Shown: positions 18,364-45,463 of the stretch, in pieces | How positions within the stretch are numbered: position 1 is the stretch's first letter | Layout of the letters: the number at the start of each line of letters is the position of its first letter | Origin: a virus | Taxonomy: Duplodnaviria; Caudoviricetes | Reading direction: 5' to 3' (one strand) | IMG/VR virus record: IMGVR_UViG_3300028591_000090 | Coordinates: 32,001 to 96,000 of that record | Length of the DNA: 64,000 nt | Made by a program: the position numbers and the translations under genes | The notes under the pieces: generated by a model | What the model was told of the DNA's origin: nothing | What the model saw: the letters and a program-made list of their open reading frames with translations, nothing else | The model's database searches: none

Positions 18364-18458
18364 GAAACACATTCTAACGCTGCAACATTATTATGTGCCA
18401 ATGGACATAAATGCTTTAATCGTTTGCAGACAATCTTTGCATTCGCCAATCCATTTAG

Positions 18459-18530
18459 AACAAGAAATGAGAATCGAACTCACATATCCAGTTTTGAAGA
18501 CTGGAGCACTAACCGTTGTGCTATTCTTGC
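18459..18530 (-). tRNA. opal (UGA-reading) suppressor tRNA, anticodon TCA, tRNA-Gly-like body
   Basis: CCAGT-CTTCAAA-ACTGG; body closely resembles tRNA-Gly at 20196; U73. Confidence 0.85.
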
Positions 18531-24947: not shown

Positions 24948-25520
24948 AAAAAAAAGGGTTTGTGAAACCCTACCACACTATGTTACCATAGATAAACAAC
25001 GCCTTTCACTAGTATACTTGGCATCAATCGTAATATGAGTTTATATCTCATGTTCTCTAACTAGTATAACGAGGGTTTCCCTTAGCCGCAGCACCCACGA
25101 TGATATAGTTGTTTGTTGTGGTCTTGACTGCTTTACCATATTGAAATTCTTGCAAGTAAGTTTGTTTTGAATATATGTAGGATTTCATACCTACAACTTC
25201 CTACAGCCTAGTAGTCCTCTGATTCTTGACGGTAATATATTCTCAAACCAATTTCAACTTAGGTATCTCCTTTTCAGTCTACACGATTATAAGAATCTTT
25301 TATCCAGTGCAATGGGCTGTCTTCTTCCATTTTATTGACAGCATCTTCTCATTTTCGCTCGGAATAATCCTTACACATTATTAGTTAGTGTTACAAATGT
25401 AATAGATTCACCATACAATGCCTACGGCTTACTCTTATGCCTTTACCAAGGCAGCTATTACATTAAGGATTTCCCGAATTTAGGAGATTCTACATAGGGA
25501 TTTCTCGCCTATGCACACAA
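24948..25520 (-). ncRNA. group I ribozyme-like RNA without apparent exons
   Basis: P3 TCTCCT/AGGAGA, P4 TTCGGGAA/TTCCGAG, P7 T-A-GACTG/CAGTC-A, P9-type CTATG-GTAA-CATAG; upstream boxA-like element; ends in terminator GGGTTT/AAACCC-T7. Confidence 0.7.
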
Positions 25521-25560
25521 AATTATTTCAAAGAACTCTTTAATAAATTTTGGAGGTTAT

Positions 25561-25857
25561 TTATCCTTCAAATTCCTCTTTCATTTTGTGAATATTGTAT
25601 TCTTCATCATCCTCCATAAATTTTTTAATATTATCAAATTTTACTTTCAATCCATCTTCACCTAACATATCTCTAAATGATAGCAAATCTCTTTTTGCAC
25701 GGTCTCTTTCTTCTGGATAATCACGGTCATCTGCCATATAGGAACAGAATACTTTCATGTTGTAACTATGAATTTCTTTGTAAATAAGTTCTGTTACTTC
25801 GAGATTTAATTCAAATTTCTTTGAAAGTTTTTCAATGTATGCTTCATATCTTTTCAT
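25561..25857 (-). CDS. hypothetical protein co-transcribed with the group I-like RNA
   Basis: ORF track; promoter within the repeat at 25884. Confidence 0.65.
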   Translation of the reverse strand: MKRYEAYIEKLSKKFELNLEVTELIYKEIHSYNMKVFCSYMADDRDYPEERDRAKRDLLSFRDMLGEDGLKVKFDNIKKFMEDDEEYNIHKMKEEFEG

Positions 25858-25871
25858 AACATTACATTTTT

Positions 25872-25937
25872 TAATTTAACTCTGCAAATATACAAAATAA
25901 AAATCAATTAACCAAATTATTTTCATATTTTTGTTTA
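25872..25937. repeat. 66-bp direct repeat copy 2
   Basis: Identical to 24639..24704. Confidence 0.9.
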
Positions 25938-29909: not shown

Positions 29910-31264
29910 GTTTCAAAATCCATAGCAAAATATGGAAATTGTTTATAATTTAACAATTACTGGGTGAACTACAACACCCTCTATCCCATCGTTGAAAACT
30001 TTTGGGAATGCTTTTCTCATGATGTTATAGCTTCCGTTTACATCTGCGTTTATCTTGTTCCCATTTTCTGAAATAAACAAGCCACGGCGAACACGCTTGC
30101 CTTTATAAACATCATGCTTTTTAATTTCTTCCAAATCAAGGAAACTGCATTTAGATGTGTAGTTTTCCTCGTTTGTAATTACTTTTATCCCCACCTTTTC
30201 GCATTTGTATGAAATCATTTCAACAAATCTACTGTGGGGTATTTGTATGAAGTTCTGATTGTTTTTTGAACCGATGTTACAGTCTTTCTTCCATCCGTCG
30301 TTCTTTCCAATAACCAGAACAGATATATTCTTGTCTTTTAAATCATTGACTATTCTCTTACTTGCACGATGCAAGTAGTTGTCTACTTTATTATTCCTTT
30401 TATTTGTGAGCCTTCTTGTCCTATGCGAATGCTTTTTCTTATTGACTTTTTCTAATTTAGACTTATGTTTCGCAAGTTCCTTATTATAGAACTGGTTCAT
30501 CGATTTCAAAGGTTTTCCGTTTATTATAACTGGCTGTTCTCCATACGAATATGTTACCGTAGCAAGGTTATTAACGCCTAAATCAATTGAGGCAATTCTT
30601 TTATTGAATTTTACTTTTTCTACATCATCTATTGTATAGATTACCTCAATTACATATTGCTCGATTCTTGGAACAATCCTTACACAATTTATTGATTTAA
30701 AGTCGTTTATTTTTGTATAAAATTCTATGTTTACTTTTGATAGTTTAATTTTATGGGACTTATCAAATACTTTTTTTGAGATAGTCTGATTGTTGAATAC
30801 TGTAACATATCTTCCATCTTCTTTGTGTAAGAATTTTGGAAACTTGATGTTTTTATTATCAACATTATTTGAACGAATCATTCCGAAAAACGAGTTGCAA
30901 GTCGCATGAACAGCACGAAGTGTCGCCTGAGCAACCTTCTGCGGAAGTCGCTTGAAGCATTCATCGTTCTTCATATATAAATACGAATCATTCAATACAT
31001 TATATGTTTTGCTTTCTTCATATTCCTTTCGTATCAGATATAATGTCCTGTTATATATGTTTTTTGAAGAAAAACACAGCGAATCACATTCCTTATATAA
31101 GGAATGATTTCTATTAATAATATGTCTTTCTACCAATTGCATTTCTGTATAATAATACAGTTTCTTTTTATTATTTATTTGCAAAAATAATTGATTTTTT
31201 TTGTCAAATAAATTGTATTGTTTCCATAAATTTTCTATAATGTTATATAAAAATAATACAGACA
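29910..31264 (-). mobile_element. non-autonomous IS200/IS605-type tnpB element (right end +/-3 nt)
   Basis: Inserted after TTTAT; removal restores the C-terminus ...IPASLLYKMI* of the interrupted gene; subterminal hairpin and TTTGAAAC end. Confidence 0.7.
29943..31142 (-). CDS. tnpB: TnpB RNA-guided endonuclease (399 aa from MQLVERH), rearranged RuvC-II type
   Basis: SIDLGVNN, VIG in place of the usual E with alternative E in NEENYTS, INADVNG. Confidence 0.88.
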   Translation of the reverse strand: MQLVERHIINRNHSLYKECDSLCFSSKNIYNRTLYLIRKEYEESKTYNVLNDSYLYMKNDECFKRLPQKVAQATLRAVHATCNSFFGMIRSNNVDNKNIKFPKFLHKEDGRYVTVFNNQTISKKVFDKSHKIKLSKVNIEFYTKINDFKSINCVRIVPRIEQYVIEVIYTIDDVEKVKFNKRIASIDLGVNNLATVTYSYGEQPVIINGKPLKSMNQFYNKELAKHKSKLEKVNKKKHSHRTRRLTNKRNNKVDNYLHRASKRIVNDLKDKNISVLVIGKNDGWKKDCNIGSKNNQNFIQIPHSRFVEMISYKCEKVGIKVITNEENYTSKCSFLDLEEIKKHDVYKGKRVRRGLFISENGNKINADVNGSYNIMRKAFPKVFNDGIEGVVVHPVIVKL

Positions 31265-31973
31265 ATAAACTTGCTGGAATATTTTCATAAGTGAAATAAC
31301 AATTTTTAATATTCATTGCTGTATCTTTATATATCTTAATATTATTTAATTTATTTAAATTTATTTTAAAAACAACATATTGTTTAAGTCCAAGACTATC
31401 TGCCAATTCTGATAATTGTTCATCTATTGTACTAAAATCACTTGTTGAATATAAAAAAATCTTTTCTGGATAATATCTATATTCTGCACTTCGGCAACGT
31501 AATCCTTTTTTCATAATAAAGTTATAGTTTCTTTTATTTGTTATATGGAAACAAATTCCTTTATTTTCATTAAAGATTATATCCGTTGCATCTGTTGTAT
31601 AAACTGGTTCTATATATAATGTATCATCATCATTATAAGTAATATAATAATTAAAAAAATCTAATATATTTTTAAAATGTTCATTTAACAGTATTTCTAT
31701 TTTCCTATCTTTATTTTTACATTTAATTTCAAGGTTTGTTTTATCATCACTTGTTATCTTATTATATTCAACATCATCTGCAACATATTGTTTTAATTTT
31801 GCAATAAGAGAGTCTATATTATGAGATTGTAACATTTCACCTATAAAATCATATCTCCAATCTTCATTAAATTTTTCTTCAATCAATGAAAAGTCATTAC
31901 CGAAGAAATCTTTCAAAAATTTCTTTTTCTCGCAACATTTACAATATTCGTCAAACAGTAATACTTTTTTCAT
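29943..31973 (-). CDS. in-frame fusion ORF: ADP-ribosyltransferase-fold-like phage protein plus TnpB
   Basis: N-terminal part has FHIT.....I.KKGL..IFL..VFKI..YFTYENIP pattern; read-through across the IS left end has no stop. Confidence 0.5.
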   Translation of the reverse strand: MKKVLLFDEYCKCCEKKKFLKDFFGNDFSLIEEKFNEDWRYDFIGEMLQSHNIDSLIAKLKQYVADDVEYNKITSDDKTNLEIKCKNKDRKIEILLNEHFKNILDFFNYYITYNDDDTLYIEPVYTTDATDIIFNENKGICFHITNKRNYNFIMKKGLRCRSAEYRYYPEKIFLYSTSDFSTIDEQLSELADSLGLKQYVVFKINLNKLNNIKIYKDTAMNIKNCYFTYENIPASLLSVLFLYNIIENLWKQYNLFDKKNQLFLQINNKKKLYYYTEMQLVERHIINRNHSLYKECDSLCFSSKNIYNRTLYLIRKEYEESKTYNVLNDSYLYMKNDECFKRLPQKVAQATLRAVHATCNSFFGMIRSNNVDNKNIKFPKFLHKEDGRYVTVFNNQTISKKVFDKSHKIKLSKVNIEFYTKINDFKSINCVRIVPRIEQYVIEVIYTIDDVEKVKFNKRIASIDLGVNNLATVTYSYGEQPVIINGKPLKSMNQFYNKELAKHKSKLEKVNKKKHSHRTRRLTNKRNNKVDNYLHRASKRIVNDLKDKNISVLVIGKNDGWKKDCNIGSKNNQNFIQIPHSRFVEMISYKCEKVGIKVITNEENYTSKCSFLDLEEIKKHDVYKGKRVRRGLFISENGNKINADVNGSYNIMRKAFPKVFNDGIEGVVVHPVIVKL

Positions 31974-32170
31974 TTCTTTACTTTGTTTAATTTATGATTA
32001 AGAGCAAGAAGAGATTTTACAACCTCAATCTTATCATCTCTATCGTCTACACCTTTATCTATAATATTCATCATTTTGAGAATAATTAGAGTTTGAGATG
32101 TAAATTCTGGACCGGGAATAGGGTGGGTTTCTTTTTCCCACGTTCTCATTCCGATTTTGATAAACTTCAT
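31970..32170 (-). CDS. small hypothetical protein (frame extends upstream to ~32270)
   Basis: ORF track; possible frameshift near the original start. Confidence 0.5.
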   Translation of the reverse strand: MKFIKIGMRTWEKETHPIPGPEFTSQTLIILKMMNIIDKGVDDRDDKIEVVKSLLALNHKLNKVKK

Positions 32171-43829: not shown

Positions 43830-43915
43830 ACAATATATCCGATGAAATAAAATTACTCAAACTTACTCAATGCTTGATTTGAATAATTCTCTGTGGATTG
43901 CAATCCACTCCATCG
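43830..43915 (-). ncRNA. putative omegaRNA scaffold of the second TnpB-like gene
   Basis: TCCGATGG/TCATCGGA enclosing GTGGATTGCAATCCAC and AATTATTCAAA/TTTGAGTAATT hairpins over the stop codon. Confidence 0.5.
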
Positions 43916-45463
43916 GAACGACAGAAGTTTATCCTTTAAATCACATCTTTTGATATTCAAAGGTTCAAAACTTCCGTCAATATTTTGTTTTAAGAGTGGT
44001 CGAAACACGGTTTCGCTTACTCTGTTTCTTATATTGACACTTGCATTATGGTCTGCATTATCACTATGACCACAACATGTACATACAAATTCTTCTTGTG
44101 TTTTTCTATTGTTCTTATCTATGTTTCCACAAACAGAACACATTTGACTGGTGTAGGAAGAGTGTACTATTGATAATTGCATGCCATAATTCTGTGCTAT
44201 ATGTTTAACTTCTTGCTTTAAAGATGAAATATTTAGTGCAGATACAAGTCTATTGTAATTTATCTTATCAAATTCTTCTGTTTTTGCAAACGATTTCTCA
44301 AATCCATTGTCAAGATTTTCCATAACAATATGGTCATAACCATTAGAAGATAATGTTTTACACATTTTGGCAATCAGATTCTTATTAGAATATTTTATCT
44401 TGTTCGCTATGACATCTATCTTGTGTTGTCTTCTTTTACCAACGGTATATTTTTCATCTTTAGACTTCAAATCATCAGTATACTTTCGTTCTGACAAATA
44501 ATCCTTGACTAATTTGTGATTGTAGTCAAAAATTTCTCCAGTAGAGCAAGAAAATAGATTATGTTTAGTATTTACGTCAATTCCTATAAATGATTTTTTG
44601 TTCTCTATCATTATTCTCTCGCAATCCTTGCACAGATTAATCTTAATTGTTTTGTGATATTCGTCAAAACAAATTATATATTCATAGTCATTCGTCTGTT
44701 TCCTCCAAGACATCATATTATCGTGGTAATCCTTTGCAAATTTAACAGGTATATCAAAGGACTTTCTATCAAATCCAGATAGACTAATGAAAGCATTTAT
44801 TACAGAGTTATAGTTCTTATTGTAGTCAACAATTCTTTTCTTTCTGCTTCTTCCACCGAATGTCAACTTCTTGAACTCGATTGGTTCTTTGTATCGTTTT
44901 AATATATAGTCTCTCTTCTGGCGTGTGAGATTCCATAGTCTTTCAAATCCAAATTTGTCAATGACTCTATTCATCATAGAGAAGAAATCCTCTTCCGTCT
45001 TTAAACGAATAAACTCAAGAACAGATGTATTGTTACATTTAATAAGATACGTTAATGTCTTTGACAAATCAGTCGAACTTCTTCTTATCTTTGTCTTCTT
45101 GAAATCACCTTTCTTGTTTTTCTTTGTAGTCCTTTTATAAAACTCAAGACCAAGGTACTCAACTTTCTCAAACTTTAGTTTTCTCCTTAATTGAACGAAC
45201 CGATTCTCATAGCAAGTATAAACGTGAGTATAGAGTTGGTTATCGAATGACGATGGAATTTTGTTTTTGTACTTATTCCTCATATATTTCATAAAGTCAA
45301 ACTTCGACATTTCGTGATAAAACATTATGTTTGAATTCACATCATTTGATACAATATTCTTGTGGTTACGTAATGTAATAGCAAAGTCATACAACTCATT
45401 GTACTTTTCCTTAGTCAATGAGTCTGACATAAATGATTTAGTATGTTTGCTTTGAATTATCAC
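43853..45463 (-). CDS. tnpB: large TnpB/Cas12f-like RuvC nuclease (536 aa)
   Basis: GIDVN, VMENL, TSQMCSVCG..CTCCG..NADHNAS.NI. Confidence 0.85.
   Translation of the reverse strand: MIIQSKHTKSFMSDSLTKEKYNELYDFAITLRNHKNIVSNDVNSNIMFYHEMSKFDFMKYMRNKYKNKIPSSFDNQLYTHVYTCYENRFVQLRRKLKFEKVEYLGLEFYKRTTKKNKKGDFKKTKIRRSSTDLSKTLTYLIKCNNTSVLEFIRLKTEEDFFSMMNRVIDKFGFERLWNLTRQKRDYILKRYKEPIEFKKLTFGGRSRKKRIVDYNKNYNSVINAFISLSGFDRKSFDIPVKFAKDYHDNMMSWRKQTNDYEYIICFDEYHKTIKINLCKDCERIMIENKKSFIGIDVNTKHNLFSCSTGEIFDYNHKLVKDYLSERKYTDDLKSKDEKYTVGKRRQHKIDVIANKIKYSNKNLIAKMCKTLSSNGYDHIVMENLDNGFEKSFAKTEEFDKINYNRLVSALNISSLKQEVKHIAQNYGMQLSIVHSSYTSQMCSVCGNIDKNNRKTQEEFVCTCCGHSDNADHNASVNIRNRVSETVFRPLLKQNIDGSFEPLNIKRCDLKDKLLSFRWSGLQSTENYSNQALSKFE

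Follow-up and report, generated by a model that had tools for sequence, protein, structure and literature searches.

Group I introns are regarded as self-removing passengers, and those known from tRNA genes belong to subgroup IC3. To our knowledge, the only one whose move to a new role has been well studied is GIR1, and we know of no earlier phage repurposing of such an intron. The introns of bacterial tRNA anticodon loops have been catalogued (Williams 2020, 10.1101/2020.01.27.920355). In GIR1, the lariat strand takes the place of the 3' residues that J8/7 lacks, P15 forms a P3-P15 double pseudoknot in place of P1/P2, an Azoarcus-like G pocket is kept, and the proposed origin includes loss of the 5' exon (PMC2219692). 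The HYER RNAs are ORF-less group IIC derivatives with demonstrated hydrolytic activity, some of which dimerise by palindromic pairing (PMC12990946). No paper describing group I RNAs without exons in phages turned up in a literature search whose scope left out most subscription papers.

The locus described here lies in a stretch of 64,000 nucleotides (the window; positions 32,001 to 96,000 of the record IMGVR_UViG_3300028591_000090) from a 183,630-bp virus with 29% G+C and Bacteroidota-type promoter motifs. The phage genome contains 24-25 tRNA genes, none with a long intron, and a single copy of an RNA of ~570 bases (window 25521-24948, minus strand). The tRNA block aside, this RNA takes up the largest gap without ORFs in the genome, at a distance of 3.3 kb upstream from the block. 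The sequence-only reading had proposed a group I-like RNA without exons, located wholly between two complete ORFs, preceded by the boxA-like motif of the tRNA leaders and running directly into a terminator. All these points were borne out: the flanking ORFs are complete (25857-25561, 98 aa, upstream; 24922-24671, 83 aa, downstream), the boxA-like GTTCTTTGA also stands at the head of both tRNA blocks (21795 and 19699), the RNA ends in the hairpin 24971-24955 followed by U8, and tRNA halves are absent around it. With its own boxA and terminator and without exons, it has the appearance of a stand-alone stable-RNA-like unit, as had been suggested. Helices P2, P3, P4, P7, P8 and P9 are likewise present on the minus strand where they had been drawn, and the G-C pair at the G-binding position (G264-C311) is retained. 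The single-sequence folding z of the RNA is only -2.3, and its P4-J4/5 is 2 nt shorter than in relatives. The features of the locus are listed in the table.

Features of the window RNA and its surroundings (window positions)
Feature	Position	Strand	Remarks
Promoter element, Bacteroidota-type -7 (TAnnTTTG)	25883-25892	-	Likely promoter, activity inferred
98-aa ORF upstream	25561-25857	-	Not a constant partner: an exon-less relative follows the closest homologs (L214/L215) but not the distant ones
boxA-like antitermination motif	25526-25538	-	Also before L332, L235, L372a/b, L214, L316, L406 and tRNA blocks
Internal guide sequence, tRNA-Met(CAU)-intron type, UUGUG	25516-25521	-	5 nt and register as in Met introns L228, L254, L242, L307
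P2 with GAAA loop	25491-25515	-	397/400 cells paired, several two-sided changes
P3 5' strand	25482-25487	-	Pairs with 25271-25266
P4 (25477-25472/25364-25359) around P5 and variable extension	25359-25477	-	
P6 and variable extension	25283-25358	-	
J6/7 and P7 5' strand	25275-25282	-	2 nt shorter than in tRNA introns; G264 equivalent at 25279
P7 strands	25279-25275/25130-25126	-	
P8 domain with variable extension	25134-25265	-	
Unpaired self-complementary 8-mer CUUGCAAG in P8	25149-25156	-	Candidate homodimer bridge
J8/7 and P7 3' strand	25125-25133	-	J8/7 3 nt (tRNA introns 6); A replaces C312
P9 domain	24972-25122	-	P9.0-type closing helix, variable P9.1, GUAA-capped hairpin 24991-24978
omega-G equivalent	24969	-	Inside terminator stem; fourth base after GUGG, as in spliced tRNA introns
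Terminator hairpin (24971-24955) and U8	24948-24971	-	Loop 24964-24959, CACAAA, complementary to guide

The 98-aa ORF separates the promoter element from the window RNA, and the downstream ORF has no promoter motif of its own. We presume an antitermination role for the boxA-like motif from what is known of rRNA boxA. Two sense ORFs within the element (43 aa and 32 aa) are absent from its relatives. Upstream of a homolog of the 83-aa ORF, the locus L100 carries a tRNA-like sequence (L100:90-180) and not the window RNA. Elsewhere in the window, a tRNA with a UCA anticodon is found at 18458-18530 in a region whose ORFs were read with TGA as a stop, and two IS605/TnpB-like ORFs are located at 29943-31973 and 43853-45463, the first with a Pfam-matched part that begins only at residue 445.

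Rfam searches at the gathering threshold and at E<=10 gave nothing relevant to the window RNA, RF00028 included. Comparison with GenBank phages by blastn gave chance matches only, as did patterns built from the window RNA alone in viral contigs, metagenome contigs and GTDB genomes; none of the GTDB genome matches scored as a family member, and protein-based locus searches found no relatives. Homologs surfaced only after a walk through neighbouring genes, in which a close homolog of the upstream ORF led to L214/L215, where a related RNA with a different core occupies the same place. L214 is a weak match to RF00028 (19 bits). Motifs common to the window RNA and L214 then retrieved about 55 elements from large phage contigs, which, judging by their sample ids, are probably mostly from rumen phages. 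The tRNA-embedded relatives are also missed by RF00028. A second, shorter group I intron in a neighbouring tRNA at L317 (L317:2032-2260) matches this model at 46.6 bits.

Most of the ~55 relatives are group I introns of the ordinary kind, located in the anticodon loops of tRNAs. About 40 such loci were found, with introns of 450-600 nt and up to three per genome (for example L228, L254, L274, L284 and L327), in tRNAs for Met, Leu, Arg, Ser, Tyr and probably Gln, Phe and Lys; the anticodons of these tRNAs are often miscalled by ARAGORN. Using one in-silico splicing rule (the guide is the 5 nt before P2, U.G is at -1, and omega-G is four bases after GUGG), clean tRNAs were obtained for 18 relatives, namely six Arg(UCU), six Leu(UAA), four Met(CAU), one Ser and one Tyr, and none for the window RNA. 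A LAGLIDADG endonuclease ORF is inserted in the tRNA-Leu(UAA) intron L402:1788-2393, between the P7 5' and P3 3' strands. The tRNA-embedded L275 and L240 have no omega-G at the family position and possibly a C at -1, and L259 (minus strand, ~4778-4350) has an intact core, U.G and omega-G but no surrounding tRNA, with flanks that look protein-coding. Motifs of the tRNA T-loop occur in the peripheral domains of 15 of 55 elements (1.2% in shuffles), and P6 of L214 contains a tRNA-like piece ending in CCA (L214:786-863).

Pairing across the family is 92-99%, with two-sided changes in P2, P3, P4, P5, P8a and P9.0; rows for P8, P9.1 and P9.2 were mis-mapped and were left out of the covariation evidence. 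For P7, five sequence versions are seen, each built around an invariant G-C, and P3, P4 and P7 vary on both sides (50 rows). In total, 20 of 39 pairs show two-sided change compared with at most 12 in 500 shuffles, a comparison in which relatedness is uncontrolled and four pairs are mis-mapped. Since P3, P4 and P7 covary, the fold is real and the ancestry is group I, with a P3-P7 pseudoknot core joined by P4-P6 and P8-P9, as the sequence-only reading had held. Of the two findings that it named as capable of overturning it, a lack of covariation in P3/P4/P7 was not what the ~55 homologs revealed, as they keep these pairs through two-sided changes, and no hidden host gene emerged, in-silico splicing giving no tRNA and the copies sharing no sense ORF. 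Judged by its relatives, the window RNA is descended from self-splicing introns of tRNA genes, a point absent from the earlier reading, as were the complementarity between guide and terminator loop and the palindrome in the P8 bulge, both described below.

The window RNA is one of a set of about a dozen members without exons, which also includes L320, L332, L256, L277/L281, L372a, L372b, L235, L268, L316/L322 and L406; for L214/L215 the lack of a tRNA half holds for the 5' side only. In L332, L235 and L277, the RNA directly follows a promoter motif of the same -7 type as in the window, starting ~15-35 nt behind it, and most exon-less RNAs have a boxA upstream. Their 3' ends lie at a terminator or just before a tRNA: an intrinsic terminator tail is present in the window, L332, L235 and probably L320, and the tails of L256, L277 and L372 have no U-tract and are followed by a tRNA. 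L372:616-1840 contains two diverged exon-less copies in tandem; a boxA stands before each and a tRNA or tRNA-like sequence after it, and only one of the two copies has a short R strand. The downstream genes differ in every case. In the window phage and in phages G001 (82% complete) and G002 (complete), exon-less copies are the only ones present.

Exon-less forms occur in at least three places among the tRNA introns in a tree of low resolution. L268 and L214 group with two tRNA introns (support 99/93) and L316 with another (96/83) in this weakly resolved tree (10 of 47 branches starred), which includes trait columns and is compatible with a single or multiple origin of the short core. L214 combines a locus of the window type with a core from another clade. 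Intermediate states were also identified: in L300, L278 and the first copy of L279 the intron sits in a tRNA without D arm and 5' anticodon side, L317 and L325 have lost the guide, and L432 is a truncated remnant between tRNAs. The peripheral domains of exon-less copies share no sequence and match nothing elsewhere in their genomes or loci, and therefore do not resemble guides.

The catalytic centre of the window RNA departs from that of the tRNA introns. In 28 of 28 parsed tRNA-embedded introns J8/7 is 6 nt long and both C311 and C312 are present; J8/7 is 4 nt in the window clade and 3 nt in the window RNA, with A at 312. Two nucleotides (262/263) are missing from the J6/7-P7 strand in six RNAs including that of the window, and the window RNA and five others also lack 2-3 nt of J8/7. 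In addition, J8/7 is short in L316, L406, L317 and L325, and short forms are confined to RNAs without a valid P1. Both J6/7 and J8/7 had been described as shorter than in splicing introns, which held for J8/7; the length of J6/7 depends on the register, and what stands there is the deficit of 2 nt relative to the family. Either the top P7 pair and the bulged A are gone, or, as the sequence-only reading drew it, a U-A top pair with bulged A has been rebuilt and J6/7 is 1 nt. The canonical G-site (3-nt J6/7, a 262-312 pair, bulged A263 and 6-nt J8/7) is not found in the window RNA, and its arrangement is broken under both readings. The four G-site triples of Tetrahymena are formed by these positions, which also act as ligands of metal A (PMC10020454).

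The G264-C311 pair is invariant in tRNA introns, kept in five of six short-core RNAs, and broken in the exon-less L235 (G.A) and L372a (G.U); omega-G is lost in three RNAs (L235, L372a and L372b). Guanosine binding, one of the functions first suggested for the RNA, is doubtful as a general function because the pair is broken in these two relatives. The core may be remodelled rather than dead, since G264-C311 is mostly kept and the A at position 312 could re-form a top P7 pair with U. The scaffold helices are 297/311 paired in exon-less copies (95.5% vs 98.7%; P9.0, mis-mapped, left out). The lesions are concentrated at catalytic positions. Such a pattern would fit a fold that is still under selection and a catalytic function on which selection has been relaxed or reversed.

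The guide of the window RNA, UUUGUG, is complementary to CACAAA in the loop of its own terminator. Equivalent guide/tail pairs are UAUGAG/CUCAUA in L256 and L277, UGUGUG/CACACA in L235, CAUUG/CAAUG in L372 and UUGUG/CAUAA in L268. Pairing between tail and guide was found in all eight complete RNAs of the hairpin/tail type, with four different guide sequences, in the register that P1 plus P10 have on an anticodon loop after splicing. In six of the eight, the guide has no better partner than its cognate tail, and the shuffle fractions for single RNAs are 0.007-0.07. A Watson-Crick pair (C-G or A-U) replaces the U.G wobble of the splice site in seven of eight, L268 being the exception. The 3' tail is the only good partner of the window guide, with C-G at -1 and no U.G, and the terminator hairpin looks like the anticodon stem-loop of a spliced tRNA in which C stands instead of U at -1; a drawing with 5 bp in the stem and 7 nt in the loop is possible. 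The guide pairs with its own tail at -4.8 kcal/mol and with tRNA-Met loops at -1.7 kcal/mol. The terminator stems of exon-less RNAs show compensatory changes, and in L316 and L406 a long helix closes the 5' and 3' ends instead. A C-G pair at -1 has been reported to inactivate the Tetrahymena intron; natural introns with C at -1 comprise 72 Leu.3Cg cases, whose splicing is untested (10.1101/2020.01.27.920355).

Most members have CUUGCAAG as an unpaired 8-mer in P8; six variants occur, namely CUUCGAAG, CUAGCUAG, CUCGCGAG and CCUGCAGG, a 10-mer with added GC and a wobble form, and the element is palindromic in 46 of 47 parsed full-length rows. Its innermost pair changes with self-complementarity kept, and this covariation excludes a hairpin as the cause of the palindrome. 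The element does not fold on itself, and its self-pairing is worth ~-11 to -18 kcal/mol (-6 for the wobble form). In OLE and GOLLD, the same covariation signature marks intermolecular bridges (10.1101/2024.12.08.627333). This suggests that the RNAs may form homodimers through the P8 palindrome, perhaps including the working tRNA introns; with only one candidate bridge seen, a dimer rather than a cage is suggested. Since the palindrome is family-wide, tRNA introns included, it cannot account for the lack of exons. The literature searched contained no report of natural group I intron dimers.

We give an even chance to the explanation that the window RNA would be a domesticated, catalytically disarmed and self-sealed stable RNA, derived from a tRNA-anticodon-loop group I intron and selected for its fold. 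It would be transcribed from the upstream promoter under boxA antitermination to an end at the U-tract and fold as a group I core; the tail loop would then occupy the vacant substrate site, mimicking a product that cannot be cleaved and tying both ends together, much as if a group I intron were frozen after splicing on its own product. Two molecules would pair through the P8 palindrome, and the job would be non-catalytic, with the RNA persisting during infection as a scaffold or decoy of the kind suspected for ROOL, GOLLD and OLE. Against disarming, few independent lineages were sampled, and since cores recombine (L214), the conservation is possibly borrowed from working introns. Such borrowing is part of another explanation, in which the RNA is a decaying fossil left after tRNA exon loss, drifting and refreshed by recombination with working introns. 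The intermediates of decay (L300/L278/L279, L317, L325 and L432), the slightly lower pairing of exon-less copies, the mosaic cores and the lack of conserved neighbouring genes agree with it. However, a fossil would hardly have gained guide-complementary tails with four different guide sequences, compensatory changes in terminator stems and a dedicated promoter and boxA; its lesions avoid helices, it persists in phages without partner introns, and L372 holds two diverged tandem copies, so we regard decay as rather unlikely.

Self-sealing also has to be weighed against a repurposed ribozyme with new chemistry, comparable to GIR1, in which the tail would be cut, branched or circularised near omega-G or the mimic junction, maturing or capping the RNA, or the freed guide would act in trans on CAU anticodon loops. 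Shortening of J8/7, seen in several lineages (the window clade, L316, L406, L317 and L325), would free active-site room for a tethered tail, G264-C311 is mostly kept, the tail returns to the substrate site, and L268, whose core is intact and whose mimic has U.G, could cleave the tail that it carries. Although the main alternative, this proposal is unlikely: P15 is absent, 2 nt are gone from the J6/7-P7 strand, whereas GIR1 keeps its Azoarcus-like G pocket, omega-G and C311 are not kept across exon-less RNAs, the window omega-G lies in a hairpin stem, and tRNA-Met loops bind the guide more weakly than the tail does. The intrinsic terminator tails of four RNAs (the window, L332, L235 and probably L320) and the lack of a promoter motif before the next ORF could alternatively reflect a cis-acting termination switch, in which the core captures the terminator loop via the guide and tunes read-through downstream. 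We consider this improbable given the different downstream genes, the lack of an evident ligand input, and the tails in L256, L277 and L372 that precede a tRNA without a U-tract. An ordinary intron in an unrecognised small gene is hardly credible: the omega-G position is kept and a weak UAU triplet ~25 nt upstream could pair with the guide, but in-silico splicing yields no tRNA, there is no P10 partner after omega-G, the exon-less copies have no common sense ORF, the core is damaged, and the promoter motif in L332, L235 and L277 leaves only ~15-35 nt before the RNA. More broadly, and tentatively, phages may have repeatedly made tRNA group I introns into a separate class of self-plugged, P8-dimerising RNAs with a rebuilt centre and a new job, whether this is new chemistry, service as a scaffold or decoy, or dominant-negative interference with rival phages by pairing with their tRNA introns and poisoning them.

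The window RNA shares the P2-P9 core of bacterial anticodon-loop introns such as those of Azoarcus tRNA-Ile(CAU) and cyanobacterial tRNA-Leu(UAA) and their guide register of 3-bp P1 plus P10, and its tRNA-embedded relatives share the insertion sites, which follow position 34 in Leu and position 36 in CAU and Arg; the P9.0 motif looks IB-like to us. Unlike the bacterial introns, the window RNA has no exons, fills its guide in cis with its tail, replaces U.G by C-G, combines short J6/7-P7 and J8/7 with long variable P5, P6, P8 and P9, carries a palindromic P8 bulge and falls below Rfam detection. The parent family of phage tRNA introns, which escapes RF00028 as well, leads in phage genomes in a graded series from working tRNA introns through exon-less forms with an intact core to those with a cut-down centre. 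This series illustrates how a ribozyme can turn into an RNA that no longer splices, and suggests one route to large phage RNAs such as ROOL and GOLLD. The short-core clade, the graded series, the guide-tail covariation and the palindrome are additions of the present analysis. Being 500-600 nt and protein-free, these RNAs are assayable and imageable at once.

Like ROOL, GOLLD and OLE, the window RNA is large and ORF-less, and ROOL and GOLLD also occur in phages near tRNA islands (10.1101/2024.12.08.627333). OLE and GOLLD have palindromic elements that covary as intermolecular bridges, and the covariation of the P8 palindrome would fit a putative assembly of this kind. Identity with ROOL, GOLLD or OLE was rejected, as no Rfam model matches and the fold is that of group I. 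With HYER it would have in common the use of an intron-derived RNA for another purpose and, if the P8 palindrome acts as a bridge, palindromic dimers; the HYER fold is group II. GIR1 of Didymium and Naegleria is similar in its origin from a tRNA-type group I intron, the lack of a 5' exon, the shortened strand into P7 and a substrate supplied in cis from the 3' side. In contrast to GIR1, the window RNA has no P15 or double pseudoknot, P2 is intact and covarying, the G pocket is altered, and it resides in a phage rather than a eukaryote and not within a twin intron. Membership in GIR1 was rejected on the missing P15 and on the terminator and unrelated 83-aa ORF downstream, in place of an endonuclease mRNA. 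If the broader reading of repeated conversion in phages is true, a group I intron would have been naturally repurposed a second time, following GIR1, with the intermediate steps still visible in genomes.
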